The notes beneath the pieces are model-generated. The model made no database searches, had not been told where the DNA came from, and saw only the letters and a list, made by a program, of their open reading frames with translations. Positions 1-64,000 of a stretch of DNA of 64,000 nt are shown here, piece by piece. The DNA comes from Escherichia phage vB_Ec-M-J. Numbering within the stretch: the first letter of the stretch is position 1; the number at the start of each line of letters is the position of its first letter. The DNA lies in sequence record OQ718158.1. The stretch is one strand, 5' to 3'. The position numbers and the translations under genes are program-made.

Positions 1-1
1 A

Positions 2-280
2 GTGTTTGAGATTTCTGCTACGGCCTCTAAAACTGGTACTAAAGGTATCATCTATAATATCTTTATGGATATGGTTTCTCATGGTATTAAAGTACTAAGT
101 GACAGTCTTCACACAGATGATGCAATTAAATTCTGGACCCGATTGATTGGTTCACACCAAGTCTACATTGTGGGTGGTGGTGAAGTATTGGCTAAGGCTA
201 GTCCAGAGAAGGTTCACAAGTACTGGAGTGATGATGAATTTAGTCCTAGTGCTGAATTACAATTACTTCTGGTAAAATAA
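2..280 (+). CDS. 3' end of a gene entering from upstream (92 codons); product unknown
   Basis: Open frame from window edge to TAA at 278-280, followed by terminator. Confidence 0.5.
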   Translation: MFEISATASKTGTKGIIYNIFMDMVSHGIKVLSDSLHTDDAIKFWTRLIGSHQVYIVGGGEVLAKASPEKVHKYWSDDEFSPSAELQLLLVK

Positions 281-286
281 TAATTG

Positions 287-316
287 TCGGGGCATTTAAT
301 GTCCCGATATTTTTTT
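287..316 (+). terminator. Rho-independent terminator
   Basis: 7-bp GC-rich stem (tcggggc/gtcccga) followed by T7 run. Confidence 0.7.
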
Positions 317-379
317 GAGACAAACAAAGCATTGATGATACAATGTTGCATGACAAAGAGACATTAAAAAGGAATTCAA

Positions 380-2344
380 ATGGCTAAGAAAGAAAGTGCT
401 GTTCTTCAGGAACATGATGTACAACGTCTAAACGATTATCAACATGCTCGCTTACGTACTGAGATGTATCTGGGTTCACGTTCTGTTCACGAAAGTCAAG
501 TACTGATCTTTGGTGAGTCTGGATATGAAGTTAAAAACGTTGAGTGGGTTCCTGCAATTCTAACTGCTACTCGTGAAATTATCGATAACAGCTTAGATGA
601 ATTTAAAAAAGCTGGAACAAAAGAGCCAGTACTCAAAGTTGATTTCAATGAAGAAGAGTTATCCTTTGAGATCAGTGATAATGGTCGTGGTATTCCAATT
701 GACTATGTTCCTGAGTATCAGAAAAATCTATGTACAATGGTAATGACTGAAACTAAAACTGGTCGCAACTTTGATGACTCGAAGCGTGATGAAACAATCG
801 GTCAGAATGGATTGGGTGGTTCAGTTGCAATGATTGTAAGTTCTAAAGCTGAACTTGAAATCCATCGCCAAGGTCGCCCGTATAAAACACAAAGTAGCAA
901 TGACGGATATGACGGTTTTTATAAGTTCAATCAGAAGTTCGAAGAAGGAACTATTATGTTTCCTGAACTTCATGTACATGAACCAACTATTCGTAAGGTT
1001 CAAGCAGATAAGACTGGAACAACAATTCGCTTCACTCTGAGTTCTGAGGTATTTCCGAACCGTAAACTACCAACCGAATTGCTATACAGTATTTTGAAAG
1101 AAATGTCTGCTGCTAACCCTACCTATAAGATTTTCCTTAACGGTAAGCGTATTGCAATTAAAGGAACTACTGAAAAAGCACTATTCAACGCATCTAAACT
1201 GATGCAATTGAACGTTAAAGATGAATCATTCAACTTTAACAGTACTTTCTACATTGTTCCTAATGCAGTATCGGGTATGAACACTAACTTCCATATGCAT
1301 GGTTTGGTTAACAATGCCCCAGCATTTGATGGTGGTACACATCTTGATACATTCAAGAAATTCTTCTCATTAGGAGTAGGAACTGCTCTAGAGAAAGAAT
1401 CAAAGAAACGCAAGATGAAACCTAACCGCTCTGATATTGAAGAAGGTCTGTTGATTTATAACGTAACAACGATGAAAGCACCATCATTCAACTCACAGAT
1501 TAAATCAAAACTAACTAACGAAAACGTTATTCGTCCAATTCAACAAGCGATGAATTCTGAATGGTTCGATGAATTAGTCAAGAAGAACAAAGAGTGGATT
1601 GATGAAATTTTTGAACGCTGTGCTGCTCGTACCAACAAGAAAGATGCAGAAGAAGATCGCCGTCTAGCTAAAAAACTACTGAAAGGTAAAGTTGCAAAAC
1701 TACTTGACAGTACTGGCACAGATCGTTCCACCTGCATCCTACTAATTGCTGAGGGTGATTCTGCTATTTCCAACATGGCAAGTGCTCGTGATCCTAAAGT
1801 TCATGGTATTCTACCATTGCGTGGTAAGATTATGAACGTCAGTGGTAATGAGAAAACCAAAGAATTAATGGATTCAATGGCATTGCATGATATAATGGCG
1901 AGTATCAACCTGATTCCTGGTGTAAAAGCGGAAAGAGCAGACCTTAACTATGGTAAGCTTTATATCTGTGCCGATGAAGATGAGGATGGAAAGAACATTG
2001 GTGCTTTAGTATGTAACTTCCTATACAAATTCTGGCCTGAACTATTCCAAGACCCAGAGAATCCATTTGTGTATATATTCAAAACACCATTCATCATTCT
2101 AGAGAAAGGCAAGGAATCCAAGTACTACTATGGTCATGATGTACATGAATACAACCCAGATGATTGGAAAGGTTGGAAAGCAACCCGTGCGAAAGGATTG
2201 GGTACGTTAGAAAAAGCAAACTTCCGTGATGCATTCACTAACAGTGTTGCAGTAGCGATTACTGATGATGGACGTCTTGGTGAAACACTTGATTTGATTT
2301 TCAACAAGAAACGTGCAGATGATCGTAAGAACTGGATGGAATAA
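380..2344 (+). CDS. 39: DNA topoisomerase II large subunit (GyrB/ParE-like ATPase + Toprim), T4 gp39(+gp60)-like, 654 aa
   Basis: GHKL motifs EIIDNSLDE and SDNGRGIP; Toprim LLIAEGDSA...ILPLRGKIMNV and CADEDEDG; SD aaaagga before ATG. Confidence 0.9.
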   Translation: MAKKESAVLQEHDVQRLNDYQHARLRTEMYLGSRSVHESQVLIFGESGYEVKNVEWVPAILTATREIIDNSLDEFKKAGTKEPVLKVDFNEEELSFEISDNGRGIPIDYVPEYQKNLCTMVMTETKTGRNFDDSKRDETIGQNGLGGSVAMIVSSKAELEIHRQGRPYKTQSSNDGYDGFYKFNQKFEEGTIMFPELHVHEPTIRKVQADKTGTTIRFTLSSEVFPNRKLPTELLYSILKEMSAANPTYKIFLNGKRIAIKGTTEKALFNASKLMQLNVKDESFNFNSTFYIVPNAVSGMNTNFHMHGLVNNAPAFDGGTHLDTFKKFFSLGVGTALEKESKKRKMKPNRSDIEEGLLIYNVTTMKAPSFNSQIKSKLTNENVIRPIQQAMNSEWFDELVKKNKEWIDEIFERCAARTNKKDAEEDRRLAKKLLKGKVAKLLDSTGTDRSTCILLIAEGDSAISNMASARDPKVHGILPLRGKIMNVSGNEKTKELMDSMALHDIMASINLIPGVKAERADLNYGKLYICADEDEDGKNIGALVCNFLYKFWPELFQDPENPFVYIFKTPFIILEKGKESKYYYGHDVHEYNPDDWKGWKATRAKGLGTLEKANFRDAFTNSVAVAITDDGRLGETLDLIFNKKRADDRKNWME

Positions 2345-2355
2345 TATAGATTAAT

Positions 2356-2378
2356 GGGGAACATGGTGTTCCCCTTTT
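2356..2378 (+). terminator. Rho-independent terminator
   Basis: ggggaacatggtgttcccc hairpin followed by tttt. Confidence 0.7.
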
Positions 2379-2394
2379 ACAAAGAGACAATGGA

Positions 2395-3807
2395 ATGGCT
2401 AAAAGTAAAAAAACCGAAAATCAAAGCATCGATAACCAAACACTAACTCTACTAGATTATAACAGTTCTGATTATGTGAATACCACATCACTAGAATATT
2501 CAATGTACACACTAGACCGTGCAATCCCTGGGATTGATGGCCTTAAGAGTTCACAGCGTAAAGCAATCTTCACCCTCTCAAAAGTTAGTGGTGAAATCAA
2601 AACTGTATCATGTGCTGGTAAAATGATTAGTGATGGTATCTATCTACACGGTGATACATCTGCATCTGGTACTCTTCAGAACCTAGCATCACCAGTCGTA
2701 AACAACTACCCACTCATTGGTAAACGTGGTGGTTTTGGTACACAAGTAAACAGTACTCCAGCTTCTGCTCGTTATACTTATGTTAAAAAGAATAAAAGTA
2801 CTGAAATGTTAGTACTACGTGACTCTGACATTATTCCAATGAAAGAGAACTATGATGGTACTACAATGGAACCAAGTTTCTTTTTACCTATTATCCCACT
2901 ATCTTTGTTTGGTAACGATAGTATGTCAGTAGGTTATAAGAGTACAATTCTACCACATAAGATTGAAGATGTTATTGATAACTGTATTCGTGCTATTGAT
3001 AAAAAACCATTAAAAGAAATGACTCCATACTATGTTTCATGTGGTGCAAGTGATATAGTAACTAAGCTTGATGAAAACAAATATGAGTTCTATGGTAAAG
3101 CACAAGTAATTGATGCAAGTACTGTTAAAGTAACAGGTCTACCACCTAACTACAGTATTGAGAAATTCATCGAGAAACTCATTAAGATGAGCGATGATGG
3201 TGATATTCGTGATTATGATAATGATAGTACTGATGTTATTGATATTACAATCAAATTACCACGCGGAACATCTGCTAAATGGGTGGAGAAAGATGTAATT
3301 GAATACTTTGGCATTCATAAGAAGATGACACAAATCCTAACTGTTCTAGGTGAGAATGGTAAGGTTAAAGTCTATGATAACACAATGGATTTGATTAAGG
3401 ACTTTGTTGAATTCCGTTTCAAATACTATGTGAAACGCTATGAGAAGAAACTTGATGATTGTGCTGCTGAAGTACGTTATAAGATTCTAATCAAAGAATG
3501 TTTTGATAATGATATGATTGCTAAGGTTAAGGGTTTTGCTAACCGTTCAGAAATGGTTGAGTTTGTTAAATCATTAAACACTGAAATCGAAGCAACCGAT
3601 GAGAATATTCAAAGCATCGTAAACTTCCCATCATATCGTTGGACCCAAGACAATTATCAATCAGTACTAGCTGATATTCAACATAACTTGGATTTAATGG
3701 ATGAATATAACAATCTCCTGTCGAATCATGATTTGATTTGGAACATCTATAAAGATGAGTTGAAAGAACTACGTAAGATTGACTTCACGCCAAAAACTGA
3801 AGATTGA
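2395..3807 (+). CDS. 52: DNA topoisomerase II medium subunit (GyrA-like breakage-reunion), T4 gp52-like, 470 aa
   Basis: N-terminal YSMYTLDRAIPGIDGLKSSQRKAIF resembles the GyrA N-terminal signature; directly downstream of the ATPase/Toprim subunit. Confidence 0.85.
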   Translation: MAKSKKTENQSIDNQTLTLLDYNSSDYVNTTSLEYSMYTLDRAIPGIDGLKSSQRKAIFTLSKVSGEIKTVSCAGKMISDGIYLHGDTSASGTLQNLASPVVNNYPLIGKRGGFGTQVNSTPASARYTYVKKNKSTEMLVLRDSDIIPMKENYDGTTMEPSFFLPIIPLSLFGNDSMSVGYKSTILPHKIEDVIDNCIRAIDKKPLKEMTPYYVSCGASDIVTKLDENKYEFYGKAQVIDASTVKVTGLPPNYSIEKFIEKLIKMSDDGDIRDYDNDSTDVIDITIKLPRGTSAKWVEKDVIEYFGIHKKMTQILTVLGENGKVKVYDNTMDLIKDFVEFRFKYYVKRYEKKLDDCAAEVRYKILIKECFDNDMIAKVKGFANRSEMVEFVKSLNTEIEATDENIQSIVNFPSYRWTQDNYQSVLADIQHNLDLMDEYNNLLSNHDLIWNIYKDELKELRKIDFTPKTED

Positions 3808-3895: not shown

Positions 3896-6292
3896 ATGAC
3901 AACTTTTACCCCTAGATGGGATATAAAAGCCGATGCTCGATATATACAAGAAGGACAAGACATTCTTGTGCGTTTGAGTATCAACAAAGAAACCACAACG
4001 GATGATAGTTATATACTTAATGAAAACGAATACTTAGAGATGATTCTAACTATTCAGGGTTTGGACAGTTCTGATGCAGTATTTCAACCAGAAGATCACT
4101 ACGCAGTGTATGTTGGTAATGATGAATCTAATCTCACACCTATATCATCAGGTATTACTGGTAACAAGTTGATTAATGGTAAGCACAAATGTAAAATTGA
4201 TAAAACTCAATTTGATCTATCGGCAAGCACTAATACCGAAGATGTTTATTTTATTAAATTGCATTGTAAAGATGATGGTACATTTAACAACTCTGAACAG
4301 ATTAACTTCTATCTTCAAGCAGTAAATGTTATGTACTATGGTAACATTTCCCCTAGTGGTGAAATTGGTTCAAATGAAGTAACAATTGAATATGATAGTC
4401 AGGAAGTGTGGGTTACTCCTGGAATCGAAATCGGTGATGATGACAAATTATATTGTATTGGTGATATTGAATACGGTTCCAACAGTACTTTATTTGTACA
4501 GGGATTTGGTCGTCGTCGTCCATTTATTTTAGGAACTGATACATCAACTGACCTATCTCCTAGAGTATTTTATCCAGCGTATCGTCTACTCGATATGACC
4601 CCAGCAGAAGTTCCTGTACGCCACATCACTGATGATTATGCAATCCTACGTCCTATTGATAATATATGGCCTGTATTTGGTATTAATAAAGAAATTAAGG
4701 TTAATATTCAAACTAGCTCTGGAGAGTTACTAGATTCAGGATTGGTTTTCAACCCAAATGGACAATTTCTGCAAACATTCCTATATGACTCTGATGCATG
4801 TGATGCATATTTCAAAGTTGAAATTGTTGATATTTTGAGTACATATAGTTATGACACTGACCGCTTCGCTATAAACCAACGTTTCAAAGCATATCAAATG
4901 TGGGTATGTCCAGACAATGTAGATGGTATATACGCTGATGGTGATAAACCTTTACCTAATCATTTGTATCAGTTGAAAGATAACGTTGTATATCCATATG
5001 TAATCTCTGGTGAATATGATCTAGGTGAAACAAAGCCAGTGTTTAAAAGTTCAGATTGGATTGATTTAGGATATTATGATTCAAGCTTAGGTGAGAATAT
5101 TATAGGTGAAGAGAAGATGTTCCGTGTTCTAGTGAACGCAGAAGAAGGAAACTCAATAGACTTCACAACTGATAGTGATTTAGGTAGTATTCATGTGGGT
5201 GAATATTTCGGTCACAGTACTTATCCACAAATACAAACTACCAGTACTAATCAGGTATCTTATGTATTAGATGGTGGACCTGATGATATTCGCAAATATG
5301 GTTTGGACCTCACCGCAGATGGGTTCTTGGTCGGGACGGCATATGCAAAAAGTTTAGATTTCAGTGCAAATGATGATATAAATTTAGAATTCAACATCAA
5401 AGCATATGACACTGAAGGTGGTGTTGCGTCCAAGTTATTTAAACTTAAAATTGTACGTGGTTTTGGACAAAACTACTTAAGTGCACATATTGTACCTTCT
5501 GTTTATTTTGAACGTGAATGGTTTAAGTGTATTAGTACACCATCATTTACAAATCAAGCTTTCCATCGCCAATCAGATGATAGATACGGGTTACAAAAAG
5601 TACCACGTATTTTATTAAAAGAAAACTTTTTGAGTCAGAACTATACTTACACTACGTTGAGTGATATTAAAAAAGTACTTAGGGAAAATATCATAAACCA
5701 AACTGGTGCAACTATACCTGATGGAAAATTTAGAATGGTAATGGGCAACTATAAAGTAATGTCAGCACTTGACAACCAAGGTAACTTGCAGTATGATATA
5801 TTATACCGTGAAGTTTTACCAGCAGGTTCATTGGTGTCAGTTTCTAAGAATCCAAGAAGTTACACGCAAATTGATAACGGAACACTCGGTGAAATATTTG
5901 GCTTGCGTCAAAATATTTTTGCAGCAATTGGCGAAGACACAACTAACCTTGTGAAAGACCCAACTGATTTACAGAACCGTGGTTTGTATGTAGATGCTAT
6001 ACCTGGAATTTCTGATGAGATGCTAGATACTGTTCCTCGCTTCATGAATCACCCATACGAAGAAGATGGAGTTAAAAAGAAATTCATGCCAATCATTCCA
6101 GTTGCATACTGTGCACCAGGAAAGGGTGAAGCATTCTTTAACACTTTACTTCAGAACAATGAACATGGTAAGATGGTTGGTGTTGAGTTTGAAATCACAG
6201 GAGTTGAATTTGGATTCTTTGCACATGAATTCGAAAACTACGTTCATGATACATTTTTGATTTCATTACAAAACAGCAATTTAGGAGGATGA
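3896..6292 (+). CDS. large hypothetical protein (798 aa), possibly a late/virion protein
   Basis: Long ORF; start moved to ATG 3896 (GGAG 8 nt upstream); late-type box upstream; no catalytic motif recognised. Confidence 0.8.
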   Translation: MTTFTPRWDIKADARYIQEGQDILVRLSINKETTTDDSYILNENEYLEMILTIQGLDSSDAVFQPEDHYAVYVGNDESNLTPISSGITGNKLINGKHKCKIDKTQFDLSASTNTEDVYFIKLHCKDDGTFNNSEQINFYLQAVNVMYYGNISPSGEIGSNEVTIEYDSQEVWVTPGIEIGDDDKLYCIGDIEYGSNSTLFVQGFGRRRPFILGTDTSTDLSPRVFYPAYRLLDMTPAEVPVRHITDDYAILRPIDNIWPVFGINKEIKVNIQTSSGELLDSGLVFNPNGQFLQTFLYDSDACDAYFKVEIVDILSTYSYDTDRFAINQRFKAYQMWVCPDNVDGIYADGDKPLPNHLYQLKDNVVYPYVISGEYDLGETKPVFKSSDWIDLGYYDSSLGENIIGEEKMFRVLVNAEEGNSIDFTTDSDLGSIHVGEYFGHSTYPQIQTTSTNQVSYVLDGGPDDIRKYGLDLTADGFLVGTAYAKSLDFSANDDINLEFNIKAYDTEGGVASKLFKLKIVRGFGQNYLSAHIVPSVYFEREWFKCISTPSFTNQAFHRQSDDRYGLQKVPRILLKENFLSQNYTYTTLSDIKKVLRENIINQTGATIPDGKFRMVMGNYKVMSALDNQGNLQYDILYREVLPAGSLVSVSKNPRSYTQIDNGTLGEIFGLRQNIFAAIGEDTTNLVKDPTDLQNRGLYVDAIPGISDEMLDTVPRFMNHPYEEDGVKKKFMPIIPVAYCAPGKGEAFFNTLLQNNEHGKMVGVEFEITGVEFGFFAHEFENYVHDTFLISLQNSNLGG

Positions 6293-13145: not shown

Positions 13146-13174
13146 TTGACAGTACTGAGTGTTGCCTGTAGAAT
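13146..13174 (+). promoter_or_regulatory. sigma70-type promoter (TTGACA-17-TAGAAT)
   Basis: -35 13146-13151, -10 13169-13174; -10 flanked by inverted repeat gtgttgc/gcaacac. Confidence 0.6.
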
Positions 13175-20434: not shown

Positions 20435-20863
20435 ATGAATATCGAACAAACTATCCGTAACCACTCTTTCTTCGCTGCTGAAACTGGTCGTGTAATCGAG
20501 AGCGTCAAAATTGAAGAACTGATGATTAACGTTAAATATAAAGAACTGAATGATGAGATTAGCAGCACCATTTGTGCACTACGTGCTCCATTCCGTTCTG
20601 AAGCAGCTAAGAAACCTGCCTATGTACTGGCGATTGCATTGGGTTGTGTAGTGAAATTGGTCGTTGATGAAAATCAACTAAATATCAAAGTTGCTCCAAC
20701 CAACGATGAAGAAAACATCGACCTGAACTTTGAAGGTAATCTGGCTGAAGACGTATTCTTCCAACAATCACTGGTTTATGATTTCCGTACCGTAACTCAT
20801 GACCATATCAACTTTGTCAATGAGATGGTTGACATTGTAGCTGAATACGAAGCTTCCCTATAA
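20435..20863 (+). CDS. FQxS-motif family protein (142 aa)
   Basis: C-proximal NLAEDVFFQQSLVYD; SD aaggaa. Confidence 0.7.
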   Translation: MNIEQTIRNHSFFAAETGRVIESVKIEELMINVKYKELNDEISSTICALRAPFRSEAAKKPAYVLAIALGCVVKLVVDENQLNIKVAPTNDEENIDLNFEGNLAEDVFFQQSLVYDFRTVTHDHINFVNEMVDIVAEYEASL

Positions 20864-20875
20864 TTAGATTAACAA

Positions 20876-20899
20876 AAGCCTCCGTAATGGGGGCTTTTT
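20876..20899 (+). terminator. Rho-independent terminator
   Basis: gcctcc gtaat gggggc then ttttt. Confidence 0.6.
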
Positions 20900-20919
20900 C
20901 CAACATAAGGATATGTATA

Positions 20920-21471
20920 ATGATTGACCAAATTAAAATCCTAACTGAACAAATCACTGATTTTCTAGCAGATAAAGATGGATTCAGTACTGAAGTTAAA
21001 ATGCATGGTGTTAGTCTCGATGTAACTGCACCAAATGGCGAAACAACCAATTATGATATGTATGAAATCCTACTTTATACATTGGCTGTTCGTAAACTTG
21101 GTAGTGATATTGAACTAAACATTAACAAAACCGAGAACGGTGACCAAGTGTTTGCAATCAACACTGGTGCACAAATGGACGTAGTAGCTGAAATCAACAA
21201 GATCAACCAATCTTTTGTGGGTTTCAAGCATGATACAATCCAATCTGTGTTCCTGGGTAAACAAACCGGAAACAGCCACTGTCCTTATTGTGTAATGACA
21301 ACCTATAAGAATGGTAACTGGATGCGTCAGGATCTAGTACTTGCTGAAATGCTTTATGCAATCACACACGGCCTAGAACTTGAACTTGATGATAGCGTGT
21401 ACTGTTTCAAGAAAATCCGTAAACTTTCTGGTGATATACAAGCTCAATTAAAAGAATTAAATGATAAATAA
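20920..21471 (+). CDS. hypothetical protein (183 aa)
   Basis: ORF-track ATG 20887 lies inside terminator hairpin; ATG 20920 has SD taagga 9 nt upstream. Confidence 0.65.
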   Translation: MIDQIKILTEQITDFLADKDGFSTEVKMHGVSLDVTAPNGETTNYDMYEILLYTLAVRKLGSDIELNINKTENGDQVFAINTGAQMDVVAEINKINQSFVGFKHDTIQSVFLGKQTGNSHCPYCVMTTYKNGNWMRQDLVLAEMLYAITHGLELELDDSVYCFKKIRKLSGDIQAQLKELNDK

Positions 21472-21582
21472 TTATACCAGTAATGGTTAACATTATCATG
21501 TTACTTTCCTCCCTTACATAATAATGATGCGTTATTATTTTATTGTATTATTCCCCTTTTTGTACAAAATCTTTTTCGTACT

Positions 21583-21605
21583 GCCCCGACCTTCGGGGCA
21601 TTTTT
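21583..21605 (+). terminator. Rho-independent terminator
   Basis: gcccc...ggggc hairpin then ttttt. Confidence 0.65.
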
Positions 21606-21627
21606 CTTGTCTAAATTTTGAGGTTCT

Positions 21628-22023
21628 ATGAATAATACTATTGGTAGTACAATATCTAAACCACTCTCTTATTACCTTGAAAAATTCAGAAGTACAAATG
21701 GTAAAAAATTTAATGGTATATACCAATTCTCACATAAAGAATATATTACAGTTGATTGTTATTCAAATAAACTTATGTACGTAGATGATACTGAATACTG
21801 TATGAAATTGTCATTGGATGTAGAATTAGATAAGTTAACATTTATTGAATATACATCCAAAAGAACATCATTTCTTGGGAAATGTAATCGAAAAGTATAT
21901 AAAAATATTTCAATGTACTTAAATGAAGATTACCACTTCCAACAAACAACGATTGAAGATGTTCTATTCAGTACTGAAGAATTGAAAGAACTATATTATT
22001 GGTATAAGAAATTTACAACTTGA
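21628..22023 (+). CDS. FQxS-motif family protein (131 aa)
   Basis: NEDYHFQQTTIED. Confidence 0.7.
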   Translation: MNNTIGSTISKPLSYYLEKFRSTNGKKFNGIYQFSHKEYITVDCYSNKLMYVDDTEYCMKLSLDVELDKLTFIEYTSKRTSFLGKCNRKVYKNISMYLNEDYHFQQTTIEDVLFSTEELKELYYWYKKFTT

Positions 22024-22078
22024 CATTATCGTGGATTTATCCTACACTGTAAGATAATGATGAATAGAGGATAAATTT

Positions 22079-22489
22079 ATGAGTTTAGATTTACACAATG
22101 AACTAAAATATTATTTCGATTTGGATATATCACATTTGAACCAACACGTCAATTATATGACTAGTACTATTTGGTGGTCTGATGAGTTTGATGAACCAAA
22201 AATCCAACTTTGTGGTGATTTGTCCGTTTTGAGGTTGTATGCCCTTGATTCGGAAATGAATATCAAGATCACATACATACCATACACAAACAAACTTATT
22301 GTAAACACCCTAAACCCAGTTACAGTATTGAAAATTTCTGATTTGGACACGATACAGTCAGATGAATCACTATTCCAACGTTCTTTGATTGATGATATGG
22401 GTGGTATTTTATATGAAGATATTGTACAATTGAAGAAGATGTATAGTGAATTGTTAGAAATTAAAAACACAGTAATTGTGGGGAGTTGA
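22079..22489 (+). CDS. FQxS-motif family protein (136 aa)
   Basis: SDESLFQRSLIDD. Confidence 0.7.
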   Translation: MSLDLHNELKYYFDLDISHLNQHVNYMTSTIWWSDEFDEPKIQLCGDLSVLRLYALDSEMNIKITYIPYTNKLIVNTLNPVTVLKISDLDTIQSDESLFQRSLIDDMGGILYEDIVQLKKMYSELLEIKNTVIVGS

Positions 22490-22490
22490 T

Positions 22491-22895
22491 ATGGTAAGTT
22501 TACTTGATATTGATAATACCAGTCTAGTACTGGCAAAAAAAGGTGTAATTCCCAATTCTACAAAAATTGATTATGCAGTTATTGAAACAAATATTGGAAA
22601 TATCTGGTATGACTCCGAAAGGGATATTGTGATTAGCTGCGTAGACAGTGACCGTGCTGAGTGTTGTAGGGTTGGTCATGACGGGCAATTTATTTTCGAA
22701 TTCCGTTACTGGAAAGATGCTAAATTCCATCATGAGCATGTTTCAATTACAGGTGTGTATTGCACCGAAGAATCGTTCTTCATGGATAGTACTGTTAATG
22801 ATTTTGGTTCAGTTACATTTGAGTACTATAAAAAAGTATACAACGTATCCAGAGAAGTAATGCGAATCATCAGAAATGCTGAGGGCCAAGATTAA
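22491..22895 (+). CDS. FQxS-motif family protein, FM variant (134 aa)
   Basis: TEESFFMDSTVND; ORF-track TTG start replaced by ATG 22491 with SD ggggag. Confidence 0.7.
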   Translation: MVSLLDIDNTSLVLAKKGVIPNSTKIDYAVIETNIGNIWYDSERDIVISCVDSDRAECCRVGHDGQFIFEFRYWKDAKFHHEHVSITGVYCTEESFFMDSTVNDFGSVTFEYYKKVYNVSREVMRIIRNAEGQD

Positions 22896-22896
22896 C

Positions 22897-23271
22897 ATGA
22901 CTACTATATATGACATTCTAGGTGACTTGAATAAAAATATAGATAATGATTTTGTTATTGTTGGAACTACACAAAATATAATCCATCTTCCATTGGGTAC
23001 ACCAGATAGGTTAATTTTTAATATATACGGAAAAACACTGACATACCTACACAATGGTATGGTTATATTGGTACTTGATATTAAAGAAAATACAATACGA
23101 TATGCATATGACTTCAACGATTATTGGTCAAGAACCCATAGTATTGATATTGAGGAAGATGAACTATTTCAATTGTCGTTAATCGAGAAAAATGTAATAG
23201 GAGTTACCGAAATTGGCATTGTTAAAAAAGCATTAGAATATGTAAATAGCAAATTAAATGGTGAGCTATGA
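22897..23271 (+). CDS. FQxS-motif family protein (124 aa)
   Basis: EEDELFQLSLIEKN; start could instead be ATG 22876. Confidence 0.65.
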   Translation: MTTIYDILGDLNKNIDNDFVIVGTTQNIIHLPLGTPDRLIFNIYGKTLTYLHNGMVILVLDIKENTIRYAYDFNDYWSRTHSIDIEEDELFQLSLIEKNVIGVTEIGIVKKALEYVNSKLNGEL

Positions 23272-23723
23272 TGAAAATTGATGAAATAAAAAATCATTTT
23301 GAAATTGCATTGTCTTGTAAATTTGATGGCTCTTATGTTCCTGATCCAGAAGAGATAATTAGAATTTCCACATCGTTTTCGGAAGAGTACAATGTTCTTA
23401 TTGAGAAAACATATGACAGTACTGAACTCGCATTTTACAATAAGAATTCACGAACAACAACATTTATATTATTATATAACACAACATCGGATATAATAGA
23501 AATTATAACATGTAAAACAAGCAAAGATATACATTATGAGACTATCTCAAATGTGAGTTATTGCTCAACTGAAGAAGGATACTTTCAGGAATCTCTTATT
23601 AAAAATTTAACAGTTAGTTATTCTGATTTAAGCACTATAATCAATTGTGTTGAAAAGCTAAATGATTTCGTTCTATCTATGTTTGATATCACAGAGCAAA
23701 ACCCGAAGGTAATCAAATGCTAA
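23268..23723 (+). CDS. FQxS-motif family protein (151 aa)
   Basis: TEEGYFQESLIKN. Confidence 0.7.
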   Translation: MMKIDEIKNHFEIALSCKFDGSYVPDPEEIIRISTSFSEEYNVLIEKTYDSTELAFYNKNSRTTTFILLYNTTSDIIEIITCKTSKDIHYETISNVSYCSTEEGYFQESLIKNLTVSYSDLSTIINCVEKLNDFVLSMFDITEQNPKVIKC

Positions 23724-24172
23724 ATCCAGGACAGTTTTTTCATTTACTTGGTATTACACCTATACCGGATTTAATCAGTGAAGCGAATCAATATCGTGAT
23801 ATAGGAATTGTATCTATGGAATACGATTCACCTGACTTTAAATGTTACGTAACATATGATTTGGTAGCCTATGAGTCAGAAACTGAGATAAAAAAACCAT
23901 CATACATTTTTGTGTTCATATATAATGATTATAGTGGTGATCTACTCAATGATGTTCATATTGACACATTTGAAATATGTGATAATATTATAACAGATGA
24001 TTCATCATGTACATTTGATTTATCAGAAAACAGTACTGAAGAGGCACTTTTTCAGTTGAGTACTGTTAGTGACACTGTACTAACTCTTGATGACATTGAG
24101 AAATTTAAAGAACAGCTTGACGCAGTACGTGAGATGTTCTATAATCATTATCCAGAAATCGAGTTCAATTAA
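23717..24172 (+). CDS. FQxS-motif family protein (151 aa)
   Basis: TEEALFQLSTVSD. Confidence 0.7.
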   Translation: MLNPGQFFHLLGITPIPDLISEANQYRDIGIVSMEYDSPDFKCYVTYDLVAYESETEIKKPSYIFVFIYNDYSGDLLNDVHIDTFEICDNIITDDSSCTFDLSENSTEEALFQLSTVSDTVLTLDDIEKFKEQLDAVREMFYNHYPEIEFN

Positions 24173-24186
24173 CTAAAGGTATCAAA

Positions 24187-24447
24187 ATGACTAAAGTAGT
24201 TCGTAAACGCCACATGATGAACATGGATGAATTTCGCACCTTTGACAAATACCGTACTATGTTTCGTATGCTGTCACAGGGCCGTCCAATCGTCATTGTA
24301 ACGGAGAATTACATGTCACCTGAGATGATGTTCGGTAATTATGAAAAGGTCTTCATGTTGTACGTGAAGCGTGAATTGCTAACGATTAAGACCTTAGCTG
24401 AAGCTACAGATGAAGATATGGATGGTGATAATACATTTACCATGTGA
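24187..24447 (+). CDS. hypothetical protein (86 aa)
   Basis: ORF with SD. Confidence 0.6.
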   Translation: MTKVVRKRHMMNMDEFRTFDKYRTMFRMLSQGRPIVIVTENYMSPEMMFGNYEKVFMLYVKRELLTIKTLAEATDEDMDGDNTFTM

Positions 24448-24455
24448 GGAAATAT

Positions 24456-24533
24456 ATGGCAGAAAAACCAAAAGAACCATTGGACCGTGATGATGATTTT
24501 TACGACGAACGATATGGGGAATCAGATGAGTGA
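24456..24533 (+). CDS. very small acidic ORF (25 aa), not in ORF track
   Basis: ATG with SD tgagga 6 nt upstream; overlaps next start by 8 nt. Confidence 0.3.
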   Translation: MAEKPKEPLDRDDDFYDERYGESDE

Positions 24534-24777
24534 ACATCGTGCAGTACTTAAAAAGATTTTAAATGAACTTGGTGATGAGTTTAATGTTACTGAAGAAGAA
24601 TATCAATGTTGGAAGAAGGATTTTGAACTCCTTGCTGAGTATGATAAAGTCTTCAATATGATTGGTGTCATTAGCCAGTACTTACTTGGTGGTGGTCGAG
24701 CCAGTGCTTCAATTCTTGCATCTGCGATCATCTGTACTTCTCGATGGTGCGATGAAAAAAGTCTGGAAGATTTCTAA
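24526..24777 (+). CDS. hypothetical protein (83 aa)
   Basis: ORF-track GTG 24487 replaced by ATG 24526 (SD gggga). Confidence 0.55.
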   Translation: MSEHRAVLKKILNELGDEFNVTEEEYQCWKKDFELLAEYDKVFNMIGVISQYLLGGGRASASILASAIICTSRWCDEKSLEDF

Positions 24778-24829
24778 ATAAGATGCTATAATGTATTATA
24801 GTACCTTAACAATATAAAAAGGATTTTAT

Positions 24830-25690
24830 ATGAAACCTATCAGAGTACTGTCACTTTTTAATGGAATGAGCGTTGGATATATGGCATTGGCAGATGCAGG
24901 TATTCCAGTTGAAAAATATTACTCATCTGAAATTGACAAGTACGCAATTGCTGAATCTTCCGAGAATTTTCCTGATATTATCCAGTTAGGTGATGTGACT
25001 AAGTGGAAAGAATGGGATATTGAGTGGGATAAGATAGATTTACTCATGGGAGGATTCCCATGTCAAGCCTGGTCTGTTGCTGGTAAGCAAGGTGGCTTGA
25101 ATGATATACGTGGACAGTTATTTTTGGTTATGGTTGACATTTTTGAGCACATCAAAAGTGTAAATCCAAACTTGCAATTTCTGTTCGAGAATGTTAAAAT
25201 GAAGGAAGATTTCAAAGAATACATTAATAGTATTTTAGGAATCACACCAGTACTGATAAATTCCCAGCATTATACGCCTCACTTCAGGCAGAGATACTAC
25301 TGGTGCAGTACTGATAAGCTTTTTATACCACCTGCATTATCAAATGCCCCTAAACTTCAAGATATCATTGAAGATGGTTGGTACACTGACAGAACCGCTT
25401 CGTACTGTATAGATGCTAACTATTTTAAGGGTGGTGATTGTAACCAGTACTTTAATAAATCAAGACGACAGTTGGTGTTTCGTGACCCAACGATTAATCG
25501 TCAATATCTATTGGAGAATGGTAAAAGAAATATTGACTATAGACACTTAAGTGTAGTAGAATGTTGTAAATTACAGGGTATTCCTGTAGATTTCTTTAAA
25601 GTGTCTAGTAAGACACAAGCATACAAAATGCTTGGAAATGGATGGACTATGCCAGTTATATCACACTTACTAAGAGAGATATTCTTTTGA
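24830..25690 (+). CDS. DNA (cytosine-5) methyltransferase, 286 aa, orphan
   Basis: Motif I LFNGMSVG, motif IV GFPCQAWS, motif VI LFENVK, C-terminal KMLGNGWTMPV; no adjacent restriction gene. Confidence 0.85.
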   Translation: MKPIRVLSLFNGMSVGYMALADAGIPVEKYYSSEIDKYAIAESSENFPDIIQLGDVTKWKEWDIEWDKIDLLMGGFPCQAWSVAGKQGGLNDIRGQLFLVMVDIFEHIKSVNPNLQFLFENVKMKEDFKEYINSILGITPVLINSQHYTPHFRQRYYWCSTDKLFIPPALSNAPKLQDIIEDGWYTDRTASYCIDANYFKGGDCNQYFNKSRRQLVFRDPTINRQYLLENGKRNIDYRHLSVVECCKLQGIPVDFFKVSSKTQAYKMLGNGWTMPVISHLLREIFF

Positions 25691-25692
25691 AC

Positions 25693-26172
25693 ATGAAGAA
25701 CTACCCCACCTATACTGAACGTGTAATGAAATTTCAACGTCAGTCATCAAAGGAAGAATTAGAATTTAATTTGTACTATCCTAATATTGGTGATGAGGTA
25801 TTCTATTGTTCTCATACAAAGAATGGAACTTTACTTAAATCTGGTAAAGGTATTATTGTTGATATGATTAGCACTTTCAAAGGTAAACTTAATGTAATGT
25901 ACAAAGTACAAGATTCAAGTACTGAGTGCATTCATGAAGTGATGCATAATATACCTGCATATCCAAAGGATTTTGTTGAGCTAATATCTCGAAGGGAGAA
26001 ACCTATGTTTTATTGTGGTTATGACAAACTAACCAAACAAATTATTCCTAATACTATGGGAAAATTTAAAAGTGATGTTAAAACTGAACTTAATAAGAAA
26101 TTAGGTTCATCATGGGAAACTGAAAACGAATTCATCGAAATTCGTTTGATTGAAGTTACTATACTCGATTAA
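25693..26172 (+). CDS. hypothetical protein (159 aa)
   Basis: First ATG after MTase stop, in frame with ORF-track 25642. Confidence 0.6.
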   Translation: MKNYPTYTERVMKFQRQSSKEELEFNLYYPNIGDEVFYCSHTKNGTLLKSGKGIIVDMISTFKGKLNVMYKVQDSSTECIHEVMHNIPAYPKDFVELISRREKPMFYCGYDKLTKQIIPNTMGKFKSDVKTELNKKLGSSWETENEFIEIRLIEVTILD

Positions 26173-26178
26173 TTACAG

Positions 26179-26201
26179 ATCCACGCTATGCGTGGATTTT
26201 T
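26179..26201 (+). terminator. Rho-independent terminator
   Basis: atccacgc tat gcgtggat then tttt. Confidence 0.7.
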
Positions 26202-26216
26202 CATAGGTGCATATAT

Positions 26217-26729
26217 ATGACAGTTCCTTATGTTAAAATTATTAATAATATCCTTGATTCGTGGGAAGATGTTATTACTGGTAAAAAGAAACCAATGCCA
26301 GTATACGCACTAACCGGAAGACTACAATTCAGAATGTCAAACCAAACTGAAACTTTTAATAATCATGATGTTCACATTACTATAACACCTGTACGTATTG
26401 TAATTAAAAAAAATCAAGATGATGAATTGACATTATCTATTGGTAGTGATAAAATCATTTTAAGTAATTTATCCGAAGAAGAATTCTTTCAACGTAGTAC
26501 TATCATCGATATGAAAGATTTCACATATGAATCATTGGTTGAAGTCAATGCACGTTTCAACGATATTCAGGAACGATTGCGACCAATCCTCCGCAAAGAA
26601 GAAGAAGCATGGAATGAAAGTGTGAGAAAAATGCAAGAAATGTTGAAAGAAAATATTAACAATCTGGGTAAAGCTACAATGGAATTTGGTAAATCTTTTA
26701 AACTGAACTTTTCAAAGGATCGTAAATGA
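26217..26729 (+). CDS. FQxS-motif family protein (170 aa)
   Basis: SEEEFFQRSTIID. Confidence 0.7.
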   Translation: MTVPYVKIINNILDSWEDVITGKKKPMPVYALTGRLQFRMSNQTETFNNHDVHITITPVRIVIKKNQDDELTLSIGSDKIILSNLSEEEFFQRSTIIDMKDFTYESLVEVNARFNDIQERLRPILRKEEEAWNESVRKMQEMLKENINNLGKATMEFGKSFKLNFSKDRK

Positions 26730-35780: not shown

Positions 35781-35784
<4 letters not shown>

Positions 35785-35941
35785 CACATGAAGAATGGAT
35801 GAATGACATTAATTTTAGATATTCGGGTATCGGTAAATGGCTAAAGTATCATTGGGAATTCATTTCAGAGCCACATCTGTATGATAAACTTATCAACGAT
35901 CCAGCATATGAAATGTACTTAATTGAACTACTGGTACGAAT

Positions 35942-35945
<4 letters not shown>
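35781..35945 (+). CDS. small protein, MTHEEW mini-family copy 2 (54 aa)
   Basis: MTHEEWMNDINFRYSGIGKW...; near-identical 5' 50 nt to copy 1. Confidence 0.5.
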
Positions 35946-36113
<168 letters not shown>

Positions 36114-36114
36114 G

Positions 36115-36536
<422 letters not shown>

Positions 36537-36540
<4 letters not shown>

Positions 36541-36565
36541 CTAAATAGTTCAGTACTGATATAAT
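36537..36565 (+). promoter_or_regulatory. sigma70-type promoter, repeated cassette copy 2
   Basis: Identical 22-nt ttgactaaatagttcagtactg then aTATAAT; -35 overlaps stop codon. Confidence 0.6.
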
Positions 36566-36571
36566 GAATTC

Positions 36572-36912
36572 CACAATCAGACGTATATGGTGTAAGTTAC
36601 GTCGATGTAATCCAGAACAAGATCTCTGGTACTCTAGGAAGTGGTGAATGTTAACCTAGACGGGTTTGATAATTGGACGATAGGCAATTATTACTTGACT
36701 AGCAGGTTTAAACTAGAGGTGACAGTCCTTTACCAAACTGGAAAACCGGATGGACTTTTATTTAAAAGGGTAAGGCGTGGAAATATGTTTACAGTAGTTG
36801 CTTTTAGTAGCCTGTACGCCCCACGTCAAGGTAGCCGAAAGGCAAGTTAAAACGGGTGGTTATAAAGCTGAATTAACAGCGGCGTTTAAAAGCGTCACCA
36901 TCCATTTTTTTT
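36572..36912 (+). ncRNA. candidate structured non-coding RNA (~340 nt), unknown class
   Basis: No well-initiated ORF; locally elevated GC; several hairpins; bounded by promoter copy 2 and T8 run at 36905-36912. Confidence 0.3.
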
Positions 36913-36928
36913 AATTAAAGTTGGTGAT

Positions 36929-37568
<640 letters not shown>

Positions 37569-37572
37569 CAAA

Positions 37573-37730
<158 letters not shown>

Positions 37731-37755
37731 CAAAAAAAAACAATGAGAGGTATAA

Positions 37756-38253
<498 letters not shown>

Positions 38254-38254
38254 T

Positions 38255-38286
<32 letters not shown>

Positions 38287-38330
38287 GATTCCCGATTCAG
38301 TAGTTTTAAAGCAGACCCGTATGTGCCTAT

Positions 38331-38422
<92 letters not shown>

Positions 38423-38441
38423 AGAGGTACTTCGAGTATGC

Positions 38442-38493
<52 letters not shown>

Positions 38494-38582
38494 TCAGTAC
38501 TACTTTTTAATTGACATATCATTGGATGAGGTGTAATATGGTTCAAGAAGAAAACTGGGGTTTTTAACACAAAGAGGCCAAT

Positions 38583-38629
<47 letters not shown>

Positions 38630-38654
38630 TGCTGCACCTATGCCTACTCTTGGC

Positions 38655-38725
<71 letters not shown>

Positions 38726-38726
38726 A

Positions 38727-38766
<40 letters not shown>

Positions 38767-38894
38767 TCAGGTCGATTAGTTAAAAGAGTATAACACGGAC
38801 CTTGTAAGTCTGAATAATCAGTGCAATTCTGATATTGACCTCAAAAATGATATTTTTCTTACATATAAATACTCCATAATATATGGAGAACTAT

Positions 38895-53595: not shown

Positions 53596-53623
53596 TTGAC
53601 ATAAGATATCAGTACTGTATAAT
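53596..53623 (+). promoter_or_regulatory. sigma70-type promoter (TTGACA-16-TATAAT)
   Basis: cagtactgTATAATgtttatatcaaa block shared with the promoter at 53944. Confidence 0.6.
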
Positions 53624-57688: not shown

Positions 57689-57921
57689 TATTGAGTTTTG
57701 TAGTTGCATTATTGTTTATGTTCTACCCTACACTAGTAGCAGTAGCCACTAAACGAAAGCTGGTGGATATCACTACTGTATTCTTGCTAAACGTGGCACT
57801 CGTTCTAGTGTCTATTATAATTCCCGTGAGCTTTACGGTTATTGATATGGCATCTGTATTACTATTCGTCTTCAGTTATCTTATGCTTATTGAAGAAAAA
57901 CCTGTTGACAAACGTTTGTAG
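57679..57921 (+). CDS. small two-TM membrane protein (80 aa)
   Basis: Two hydrophobic segments. Confidence 0.55.
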   Translation: MYLVLSFVVALLFMFYPTLVAVATKRKLVDITTVFLLNVALVLVSIIIPVSFTVIDMASVLLFVFSYLMLIEEKPVDKRL

Positions 57922-57932
57922 TACTGTATAAT
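57905..57932 (+). promoter_or_regulatory. sigma70-type promoter (TTGACA-16-TATAAT)
   Basis: -35 overlaps the last codons of the upstream gene; gtagtactgTATAAT block. Confidence 0.6.
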
Positions 57933-62772: not shown

Positions 62773-62883
62773 TTTGACTTTGGAACAACCATTTCATATG
62801 TGATATAATCTTAAGTGTCTGTTGAAATAAACAGCACATGAAGTATAAATATTAAAGTAATTTATCTCTTTAAGGAGTATGAA

Positions 62884-63267
62884 ATGGTTGATAAATGGAA
62901 TAAGAAAGATCCATCGCATGATGTGGATATTTCTGGAATTGATAATGCACATAAGCATAAGTATCTTGATTCACTAGGTCTACTAAAGCCTGACCAAAGT
63001 CTTGCACATGATCGTCCTTCACGCGAAAAAGCTTTCAGTTTAGAATCACTAGGCCATGAATTGAATCGTGTATTTGAAGATCATCCAATTTATGTACGTG
63101 ATATCATTGAGAAACTTAAAGTGACTCCTAAAGAGCACTTCAAGGCAACAGTACACGCAGCATTCCGTGCACTACATGAAGCACTAAAGAAAACTCATAA
63201 CCTTCGTAAGATTCATGATGATATCGTGAACTCTATTGAAGGCGAAAAACATAAGTTTAAAAAATAA
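62884..63267 (+). CDS. hypothetical basic protein (127 aa)
   Basis: ATG with SD aaggag. Confidence 0.65.
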   Translation: MVDKWNKKDPSHDVDISGIDNAHKHKYLDSLGLLKPDQSLAHDRPSREKAFSLESLGHELNRVFEDHPIYVRDIIEKLKVTPKEHFKATVHAAFRALHEALKKTHNLRKIHDDIVNSIEGEKHKFKK

Positions 63268-63273
63268 TTAAAA

Positions 63274-63297
63274 GGGGTTGACTTCAGTCAGCCCTTT
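63274..63297 (+). terminator. terminator-like hairpin, TTGACT in stem and TATAAT 19 nt downstream
   Basis: ggggttgac ttca gtcagccc then tttg; weak U-tail. Confidence 0.45.
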
Positions 63298-63354
63298 GTC
63301 GTATAATATTTTCATCAAGTGATACAAAATACAAACAACGTGAGGTATTAAATT

Positions 63355-63468
63355 ATGCAAGGTACTAAATTCATCATCGCTGCCCTAATCGCTGCTGTTG
63401 TAGTGGGTACAGTATGTTATTCAATTGACACCTATATCAATACACCTAGTGTTGAACAAACCAAATAA
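63355..63468 (+). CDS. small membrane protein (37 aa), not in ORF track
   Basis: ATG with SD gtgagg; hydrophobic core FIIAALIAAVVVGTV. Confidence 0.4.
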   Translation: MQGTKFIIAALIAAVVVGTVCYSIDTYINTPSVEQTK

Positions 63469-63476
63469 GGGATATC

Positions 63477-63740
63477 ATGGCTGAAACATTATCACTATAT
63501 GCGTTAGTACTGTTATTTGTCGGATTTCTTCCCGCACTCATTACAGCCATTCGTGTTGTTAAACATGAAGCTGCATTGATTGTATGTAGTATTGGGTCGA
63601 ACATTCTATTGTATTTCTTTTTGACAAACACTATTGTACTGTTCGCTTTCTTTATCATGATTCTGTGGGTACTTGTAATTCTCGGATTCTTCATTTGGTC
63701 ATTGGTTGATCCTAAGAAAAAAACAGGAGAAGTGAAATGA
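63477..63740 (+). CDS. polytopic small membrane protein (87 aa)
   Basis: Three hydrophobic segments. Confidence 0.6.
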   Translation: MAETLSLYALVLLFVGFLPALITAIRVVKHEAALIVCSIGSNILLYFFLTNTIVLFAFFIMILWVLVILGFFIWSLVDPKKKTGEVK

Positions 63741-64000
63741 AATTAATTATTGTAATGATGATGTTTTTGGCTTTCCCAGTACTGGCTACTCCTAATCTGG
63801 ACTGCACACTGTTGCGTTCAGATGGTGACACACTTGAAATCAACACATATGAACTCTTTGGTCCAAGTGTAGTGGAGAATGAAACCACCTACAATTTCAA
63901 AGCTATTGACTTTGAAGGTAATGTTCCAGTACTAACTACAATGACTATTGACAAAACTACTTTACTCGGACGAATCACCACACAACGCGGAGAAAGTAAA
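63737..64000 (+). CDS. 5' part of a secreted protein gene running off the window end
   Basis: ATGA overlap with upstream stop; signal-peptide-like N-terminus; no stop before window end. Confidence 0.5.
   Translation, partial: MKLIIVMMMFLAFPVLATPNLDCTLLRSDGDTLEINTYELFGPSVVENETTYNFKAIDFEGNVPVLTTMTIDKTTLLGRITTQRGESK

Follow-up and report, generated by a model that had tools for sequence, protein, structure and literature searches.

AGTACT, a highly iterated palindrome under selection in Escherichia phage vB_Ec-M-J and its RaK2-like relatives

Chi, KOPS and DNA-uptake sequences are dense, short, oriented words that are selected for density and mark "self" for DNA-processing machines. In phage SPO1, the abundant double-stranded DNA (dsDNA)-binding protein TF1 selects phage DNA by way of hydroxymethyluracil and inhibits early transcription; it binds throughout the genome, and its preferred sites are the early promoters in the SPO1 terminal redundancy. 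The cyanobacterial Highly Iterated Palindrome, HIP1 (GCGATCGC), is 15- to 300-fold over-represented and is selected (PMC5861425; PMC4390886), and a periodicity of 10-90 kb has been reported for it. Here we describe a comparable word, the palindromic hexamer AGTACT, in a 64,000-base stretch (the window) of the genome of Escherichia phage vB_Ec-M-J (OQ718158.1). AGTACT is under active selection at the DNA level, dispersed, concentrated in terminal repeats, and set at operator-like positions in early promoters. Among known phenomena HIP1 comes closest; AGTACT differs from it in being viral and shorter, in its mostly non-conserved positions, and in its link to early promoters.

Excess of AGTACT and its maintenance

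The window contains 171 copies of AGTACT, compared with 18.6 ± 4.1 (maximum 30) in 100 dinucleotide-preserving shuffles. AGTACT is the most over-represented of the 4096 hexamers under an order-1 Markov model (171 vs. 18.1), and its mononucleotide expectation is 21.5. A sequence-only reading of the window had proposed such an excess after counting seven copies in the first ~3.3 kb; this was an undercount, as 12 are present there, and the excess is stronger than claimed. Composition or Markov structure was rejected as the cause, since the excess stays large under mono-, di- and trinucleotide models alike. At order 4 the Markov expectation rises to 138 copies, but most of the pentamers on which it draws are the AGTACT sites themselves (171 of the 261 AGTAC and 171 of the 250 GTACT in the window), which makes this expectation circular.

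The 135 open reading frames (ORFs) called in the window, 128 of them on the + strand, cover 90% of it and match the deposited annotation of the close relative fEgEco12. Synonymous codons were shuffled within each gene, preserving the proteins and per-gene codon usage, which gave an expectation of 39.8 ± 5.5 intragenic copies against the 158 seen (3.9-fold); shuffling of whole codons gave 22.5 ± 4.5 (7.0-fold). Both ratios, together with the equal enrichment of the frames, lie far from the value near 1 that the sequence-only reading had named as fatal to its claim. In a repeat of the codon-aware run, the full palindrome was again 3.9-fold enriched (z 19.5), compared with 1.35-fold and 0.94-fold for the half-sites, while five control palindromes stood at 0.55 to 1.33 of expectation. 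AGTACA is mildly enriched on the coding strand (1.55-fold, z 3.6). As had been reported, the word occurs in all coding frames, with 68/31/59 copies against an expected 18.4/7.4/14.7 (~4-fold per frame). Another 13 copies are non-coding or lie on gene boundaries, so that ~90% of the window sites are intragenic, and in non-coding DNA the enrichment is ~7-fold. AGT, ACT and GTA are frequent codons, AGT making up 31% of the Ser codons of the window genes; nevertheless codon usage, codon pairs and translation are ruled out as the cause by both codon shuffles, the equal frames and the non-coding enrichment.

Over-representation can also be driven by very-short-patch (VSP) repair, as in the case of CCWGG in E. 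coli. Among the nine classes of one-mismatch neighbours of AGTACT, eight reach 1.0-2.2 times their expected number; AGGACT/AGTCCT is the lowest, with 0.74 times. Repair converting a neighbour into AGTACT is disfavoured because no class is clearly depleted, and a VSP-like conversion was rejected in particular because AGTATT/AATACT, the deamination product that it should deplete, stands at 1.13 times.

The 171 copies are dispersed from position 1 to 64000 with a mean spacing of 375 bp and a largest gap of 1,575 bp. This is slightly more even than random (coefficient of variation of the gaps 0.80; five gaps above 1 kb against ~11 expected). The flank preference noticed earlier is real: C precedes the word at 75 of 171 sites, G follows it at 92 of 171, and the complete CAGTACTG is found 43 times. 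This extension is weak and symmetric, and G at -1 is strongly disfavoured (4-9% genome-wide vs. 19% background).

Over its first 20 kb the window is ~99% identical to the Escherichia jumbo phages fEgEco12, EC.P1, WPEC5 and Ecwhy_1 and ~82% identical to the PBECO4/121Q group. Judged by sequence similarity, vB_Ec-M-J is an Asteriusvirus member of the "RaK2-like" myoviruses, whose genomes are 350-385 kb long, and the window corresponds to about 255-319 kb of the fEgEco12 genome. Whole-genome counts were made on the complete genome of fEgEco12 (375 kb; 99% identical), assembled from eight pieces. AGTACT is its first-ranked hexamer, with 1,115 copies against 117 expected (9.5-fold). The enrichment is thus genome-wide, as had been proposed, in this complete relative; it is not uniform along the genome.

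For a survey of the clade, hexamers were ranked around the topoisomerase gene and the loci were grouped by topoisomerase identity. AGTACT ranks first in all 20 loci whose topoisomerase is at least 69% identical, with 5.6-10.8-fold enrichment and 1.4-3.2 sites per kb. These loci span phages of Escherichia, Klebsiella and Erwinia as well as uncultured contigs (41-378 kb, most 345-378 kb). Four jumbo contigs with a topoisomerase ~40% identical show none of this enrichment. Rhizobium phage RHph_N34 (41.9 kb, 49% GC, topoisomerase 40% identical) has a weak 2.4-fold excess (14 vs. 5.8). The top palindrome of this phage is CGTACG (24 vs. 6.8), which keeps the GTAC core but differs in its outer bases and may represent a sister system. 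AGTACT is found at 1.4-fold in T4, 0.7-fold in T5 and 1.0-fold in lambda, and is absent from the coliphage muut, where 12 copies are expected. A 50-kb sample of E. coli K-12, used for comparison with the host, contains 3 copies (0.06 per kb, or about one per 17 kb), compared with 2.98 per kb in the phage, a ~50-fold difference in density.

Other palindromes are treated very differently. The avoidance of palindromic restriction sites usual in phages, which the sequence-only reading had contrasted with AGTACT, holds here: 25 palindromic hexamers are absent from the entire fEgEco12 genome, and AGTACT is the sole strong exception. In the window alone, 28 have zero copies. Those missing from fEgEco12 include CCATGG (54 expected), TGGCCA (50), GCATGC (48), CTGCAG (46) and GGTACC (39), and among the rare ones are CAGCTG (2 copies), GACGTC (4) and TGATCA (58 vs. 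176 expected).

Maintenance of the word was examined in protein-guided codon alignments of ~15 kb from five genomes (the window, G17, Klebsiella phage RCIP0023, EJP2 and an Erwinia phage). Between genera, four-fold degenerate sites are 0.42-0.46 identical compared with 0.37 by chance, which is near saturation. Ser-Thr pairs are nevertheless encoded as AGT-ACT in 21/39, 21/42, 19/42, 34/40 and 17/28 cases in the five genomes (45-85%), whereas codon usage predicts 4.6-7.4 per genome (13–18%), and Val-Leu is written GTA-CTN at 1.6-2.8 times expectation. Of the 123 aligned positions that hold AGTACT in any of the five genomes, 79 are private to one and a single position is common to all, while AGTACT is retained 1.5-2.5 times as often as frame-matched hexamers. 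Since the AGT-ACT preference persists despite saturation while positions turn over, the density of the word is actively maintained, and its individual positions are only weakly constrained. Patterns of presence and absence cannot separate turnover from the decay of a denser ancestor, and the argument therefore relies on saturation. A polarised test on the short branches leading to the window and to G17 gave gains of 3/70 against a 2% background (p 0.16) and losses of 0.49 against 0.50, but it is underpowered and confounded by convergent gains. Examples of the positionally conserved minority are found in the topoisomerase II medium-subunit gene (2395..3807, + strand), where sites were matched across genomes by their offset from annotated gene starts: the sites at 2811, 3118 and 3226 are orthologous in EJP2, and the first two also in an Erwinia phage.

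Selection at the DNA level, the inference drawn earlier from the occurrence across frames, is accordingly supported by the codon-aware excess, by AGT-ACT use at saturation, by conservation of the word while its positions turn over, and by the fixed promoter positions described in the following section; a binding, nicking, modification or packaging-related site had been named as possible targets of such selection.

Terminal repeats, early promoters and the tRNA cluster

The genome of fEgEco12 has direct terminal repeats of 20,993 bp (PMC13070987). The density of AGTACT is 6.6 per kb in these repeats and falls to 2.6 per kb across the genome body and to 1.0 per kb in the 16.7 kb that adjoin the inner side of the left repeat. 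Because these region-specific densities are conserved in G17, a uniform mutational drive is disfavoured. The terminal repeat of Klebsiella phage Muenster, as defined by PhageTerm, is similarly dense, with 7.8 AGTACT per kb.

The fEgEco12 repeats consist of densely packed small genes, each behind a sigma70-type promoter (64 matches on the + strand, 4 on the - strand). AGTACT is found, in one or two copies, in 56 of the 64 terminal-repeat promoters, compared with 10 of 74 promoters in the body, and it occupies two places. Site A lies at the upstream edge of the -35 element, which it overlaps or abuts, at about -39 to -34 (AGTAC|TTGCAA or AGTACT-A-TTGACA). Site B abuts the -10 element, directly as C-AGTACT-G-TATAAT or with one extra base, at about -19 to -14. 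The starts of the two sites are 20 or 22 bp apart, and such pairs recur in the terminal-repeat promoters. The same design is found in Klebsiella phage RaK2 as AGTAC|TTGACA-N9-cAGTACTg-TATAAT, with spacer bases that vary freely; in one 11-kb RaK2 locus, 12 of 16 promoters contain AGTACT and the density is 6.5 sites per kb. In the terminal-repeat class, therefore, the word has the fixed position relative to -35 and -10, conserved across genera, that is expected of an operator or promoter element.

The first 1,688 bases of fEgEco12 have no annotated gene and contain 17 AGTACT (~10 per kb), several of them as TTCAGTACTGAA, with tandem units at 1546/1559 and 1599/1612. This first 1.7 kb could be an end-proximal binding array.

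In the window, TTGACN-N15-19-TANAAT matches 29 times on the + strand and never on the - strand, co-oriented with the genes. The earlier observation that AGTACT occurs inside promoter spacers is confirmed for 6 of these 29 sigma70-like promoters. That AGTACT is just a promoter element was rejected in view of this low share, the 10 of 74 body promoters and the ~90% of window sites that are intragenic.

The window promoters with the word are as follows, all on the + strand and with the sites given in brackets. At 13146..13174, TTGAC[AGTACT]G-N-TAGAAT has a site at 13151 that overlaps the -35 element, 27 nt upstream of a TelA-like gene. At 36116..36143, TTGACT-AAATAGTTC-[AGTACT]-G-TATAAT has a site at 36131 that abuts the -10 element; this is the first copy of a triplicated promoter, the second lying at 36537..36565 with its site at 36552. 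The two-site promoter [AGTACT]TGACT-N9-[AGTACT]GATAAAAT at 37292..37325 has a site A (37292) that overlaps the first T of the -35 element and a site B (37312) in the spacer, 20 bp apart, and thus has the architecture of the terminal-repeat promoters. Promoters of the form TTGACA-N9-[AGTACT]G-TATAAT are found at 53596..53623 (site at 53611) and 57905..57932 (site at 57920). The three near-identical copies at 36116, 36537 and 37297, which share TTGACTAAATAGTTCAGTACTG(A)TA(T/A)AAT, lie within 1.2 kb and point to promoter duplication among the tRNA genes and small ORFs there.

The two-site promoter lies just upstream of the gene for tRNA-Ser(GCU) (37332..37421, + strand), which decodes AGT/AGC. 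This gene belongs to a tRNA cluster at 35423-38842 that comprises Ser(UGA), Ser(GCU), Met, Asn and Thr(UGU), together with a sixth, tRNA-like sequence at 35517-35595 that matches only weakly in Rfam (32.6 bits). AGTACT stands immediately 5′ of each of the two Ser tRNAs, at 35417 and 37312. The tRNA-Ser(GCU) may accommodate the heavy use of AGT imposed by the motif. The 14-bp palindromes pointed out earlier at 38257 and 38377 are present; they form part of three copies of an extended site, GTATTCAGTACTGAAT, at 38255-38270, 38375-38390 and, in degenerate form, 38490-38505, which are spaced 120 and 115 bp apart in non-coding DNA between tRNA genes.

Candidate readers and rival explanations

We favour, with a probability of roughly 0.4, a reading in which AGTACT is a clade-specific cis-acting dsDNA word recognised by a putative symmetric (dimeric) protein, either phage-encoded or delivered with the virion, that would act at early promoters and mark phage DNA. 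Strong enrichment is limited to the complete palindrome, as would fit a symmetric double-stranded reader. At sites A and B such a reader would overlap RNA polymerase contacts, and the sites could act as operators that switch early transcription, most simply by shutting it off. Binding of this reader would also extend along the entire phage chromosome. Since the site density is ~50-fold higher than in the host sample, the reader could tell phage from host DNA without base modification, and this discrimination could serve organisation, protection or temporal control.

A wider version of this proposal can be put forward only tentatively. AGTACT would be a sequence "barcode" that replaces base modification as the self mark, and a dedicated predicted reader at ~1,100 sites per genome would switch off the terminal-repeat early promoters and direct protection, compaction, replication/recombination and packaging to phage DNA; the strand-specific AGTACA blocks described below would mark a locus of fixed polarity, for example a replication origin. 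If this is true, AGTACT would be without precedent both as a highly iterated, selected palindrome to which a function can be assigned and as a viral example of such a word.

Several points weigh against a symmetric reader of this kind. An 8.6-kb block in Asteriusvirus carries strand-specific AGTACA (46:0) instead of AGTACT, which a purely symmetric reader does not predict. Helical phasing of the body sites is marginal (power 24.8 at period 10.5 against a variance of 4.9; p ~0.07 corrected for the periods tested), and short-range clustering of the body sites was not found. A repressor model alone leaves the need for ~800 intragenic sites unexplained. Some promoter copies are related by paralogous duplication, and part of their fixed positioning could reflect this shared ancestry instead of selection. 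AGTACTG may also add to promoter strength intrinsically; in the offset-2 class, its TG sits at the place of the extended -10 TG. Finally, Pfam finds no DNA-binding domain in the annotated "transcriptional regulators" or in the larger terminal-repeat proteins, and a TF1/HU-like reader was not found in the phage. In Muenster, the early terminal-repeat gene product gp011 (5709-6209) has an H-NS N-terminal oligomerisation domain (PF22470, E 1.3e-5) and may, from its sequence, be an H-NS mimic or antagonist; an equivalent was not recognised in the fEgEco12 repeat.

An epigenetic mark, which would be compatible with the symmetric reader, is less probable than the reading favoured here but is the best placed of the rivals. 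AGTACT would then be the target of a phage orphan methyltransferase, either g162 or an unrecognised enzyme; methylation would shield the ~1,100 ScaI-type sites from host restriction, and their state (methylated, hemimethylated or unmethylated) would time the early promoters after replication or discriminate strands or self. The removal of 25 other palindromes suggests that the phage is exposed to type II restriction, and the tolerance of 1,115 AGTACT therefore calls for site-specific protection. The absence of AGTACT from muut (0 vs. 12) fits restriction pressure in E. coli, although this is one phage and thin evidence. HIP1, moreover, is tied to orphan methyltransferases (PMC4390886).

Two methyltransferases are conserved in the clade. 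The first, g162, is a small Dam-family N6-adenine methyltransferase (PF05869, 174 aa) found clade-wide; in fEgEco12 (assembly piece L028, 11064-11588) it is mis-annotated as a "type I R-M methyltransferase subunit". The annotated "SAM hydrolase" g271 (piece L029, 16992-17336) has no Pfam support. The second, a C5-cytosine DNA methyltransferase (PF00145; 24830..25690 of the window, + strand), has a short, Dnmt3-like target-recognition region; among solved structures, Dnmt3 catalytic domains match its sequence best. Its orthologues occur across the clade, and a 50%-identical homologue is found in muut, which has no AGTACT. CpG methylation, based on bisulfite analysis, was reported as data not shown in the RaK2 paper (PMC3622015). 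On these grounds the C5 enzyme is probably CpG-specific, and it was judged unlikely to be the cause of the AGTACT excess.

Dam methylation of GATC is read at P1 pac, in IS10 and at oriC by SeqA, and a mark on AGTACT would resemble this or the two HIP1-associated methyltransferases of cyanobacteria. In known methylation-controlled promoters the site usually lies within the -10 or -35 hexamer; the phage sites flank these elements instead. Protection alone, furthermore, predicts a ratio of ~1-fold and not 9.5-fold. Methylome or ScaI digestion data for members of the clade were not found in the literature. For fEgEco12, digestion patterns were as predicted in silico with ten enzymes, ScaI not among them (PMC13070987); on our reading of that paper, the DNA is not globally hypermodified. 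If unmodified, these genomes would be cut by ScaI about every 340 bp.

It is doubtful, though less easily set aside than a host factor, that the unit is instead an asymmetric (C)AGTAC read on one strand by a machine that translocates or reads a template, such as a Chi-like signal for a phage helicase-nuclease, a primase or nickase site or a clamp-loading nick, the palindrome being an economical two-strand placement where forks or ends arrive from either side. The main evidence for such an oriented signal comes from two blocks in fEgEco12. In block 2 (29,021-37,647; 8.6 kb), AGTACT is missing and AGTACA occurs 46 times, always on the + strand. The flank preferences of these AGTACA are those of AGTACT, all three frames contribute (17/14/11), and their number lies above the codon-aware null (40 vs. 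16.5 ± 3.2). Block 1 (20,862-26,616; 5.8 kb) has the reverse polarity, with 9 TGTACT against 2 AGTACA, and a 2.4-kb AGTACT-rich island lies between the two. The same layout is found in G17 (~85% identity), with 43:0 in block 2 and 11:1 in block 1. This conservation, together with paralogues only ~35% identical and a block 2 full of AGTACA, led us to reject recent foreign DNA or a paralogue founder effect as the origin of the AGTACT "desert". The divergent polarity around the island resembles that of signals flanking a replication origin, as known for Chi, KOPS and lagging-strand signals. From block 2 it is clear that strand-specific selection can act on a one-sided form of the word, which keeps an oriented signal alive as a model, and the mild coding-strand enrichment of AGTACA in the window points the same way.

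Against an oriented signal, the half-sites in the window (1.35 and 0.94 times expectation) fall far short of the palindrome (3.9 times), and strand bias is confined to the Asteriusvirus-specific 8.6-kb block, half-sites elsewhere in the genome being nearly strand-balanced (584 vs. 454). Muenster lacks the layout, so the oriented block cannot account for an enrichment seen across the clade. Since block 1 consists of tandem paralogues (~35% identical), its 9-11 TGTACT may be partly inherited. Fixed promoter positions are not predicted by an oriented signal, and misoriented Chi or primase sites are not normally harmful, yet they are excluded here. Between 145 and 160 kb of fEgEco12, non-palindromic AGTAC[ACG] is also in excess on the + strand (41 vs. 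6), in tail-fibre genes encoded on the - strand; we attribute this, tentatively, to Gly-Thr (GGT-ACT) codon pairs and not to an orientation signal.

A host factor is very unlikely. A DNA-binding protein conserved in Enterobacterales would read AGTACT and be titrated or activated by the phage, and the nucleoid-occlusion factor SlmA is the named candidate: its 12-bp binding consensus GTGAGTACTCAC contains AGTACT, and this palindrome is read by a dimeric host protein (PMC3020112). All enriched genomes with a named host infect Enterobacterales (Escherichia, Klebsiella, Erwinia), the non-enriched distant relatives have 46-53% GC, and early promoters have to be active ahead of all phage gene expression. 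However, the phage word shares only the central AGTACT with the SlmA site, and the outer bases that define that site are absent or disfavoured: GTGAGTACTCAC has 0 copies, GAGTACTC accounts for 6 of the 1,115 sites, and at -1, where the SlmA consensus has G, this base is disfavoured more than any other flank. SlmA was rejected for these wrong flanks. Host-repressor sites over the phage's own earliest promoters would, in addition, be counter-productive, and the sampled host chromosome is nearly without sites (3 in 50 kb).

That AGTACT has no function, as a by-product of base, dinucleotide, codon or codon-pair usage or of neutral mutation or repair bias, is hardly credible: the order-4 prediction of 138 of the 171 copies, the common codons AGT, ACT and GTA, and a short-branch test without a significant excess of gains or deficit of losses are outweighed by the circularity of that prediction, the codon-aware excess that is equal across frames and extends to non-coding DNA, the lack of a clearly depleted neighbour class, conserved 6-fold density differences between regions of one genome, a signal that persists across saturated synonymous divergence, and promoter positions that are fixed while spacer bases vary.

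Comparison with known systems

A literature search found no paper in which AGTACT or CAGTACTG is associated with these phages; the term "SCAI" used by the RaK2 authors names a culture medium (PMC3622015). Phage genomics views short palindromes as liabilities, and here one clade with genomes of 350-380 kb purges 25 of them and drives one to ~1,100 copies, bending codon choice for it (up to 85% of Ser-Thr pairs) and wiring it into the first promoters. This combination implies that a sequence-reading component is central to how the RaK2/121Q/PBECO4 group carries out infection; members of the group are under development for therapy. AGTACT density also provides a one-line diagnostic of clade membership in metagenomes.

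Restriction-site avoidance is evident in fEgEco12, with its 25 zero-copy palindromic hexamers, and in muut, which avoids AGTACT wholly. Avoidance predicts depletion or at most neutrality, as seen in T4, T5 and lambda, whereas AGTACT is 9.5-fold up in fEgEco12. Like Chi, KOPS and uptake words, AGTACT is selected for density and not for position, and the Asteriusvirus AGTACA block has strand polarity; those words, however, are asymmetric and strand-biased, while AGTACT is palindromic and its half-sites are not enriched in the window. The role of TF1 in SPO1 resembles the functional model proposed here for the AGTACT reader. TF1 relies on a modified base, whereas discrimination through AGTACT would be purely by sequence, the DNA being apparently unmodified at ten tested sites (our reading of PMC13070987).

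HIP1 offers the closest likeness. Both words are short palindromes in many-fold excess, here over composition and codon nulls alike, dispersed in coding (all frames) and non-coding DNA, shared across relatives, and attributable to selection rather than biased repair; both occur in genomes with orphan methyltransferases, and a reader has been identified in neither case. AGTACT differs in that it is viral and is a hexamer, a different and shorter word. Most of its positions turn over (79 of the 123 aligned ones are private), in contrast to the reported positional conservation of HIP1 sites. It occupies fixed positions in early promoters, whereas a gene-regulatory role was not found for HIP1, and it coexists with extreme avoidance of other palindromes. 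The function of HIP1 was described as unresolved after 20 years in a 2018 study, and AGTACT, in a small system with a clear temporal programme, provides a tractable counterpart.

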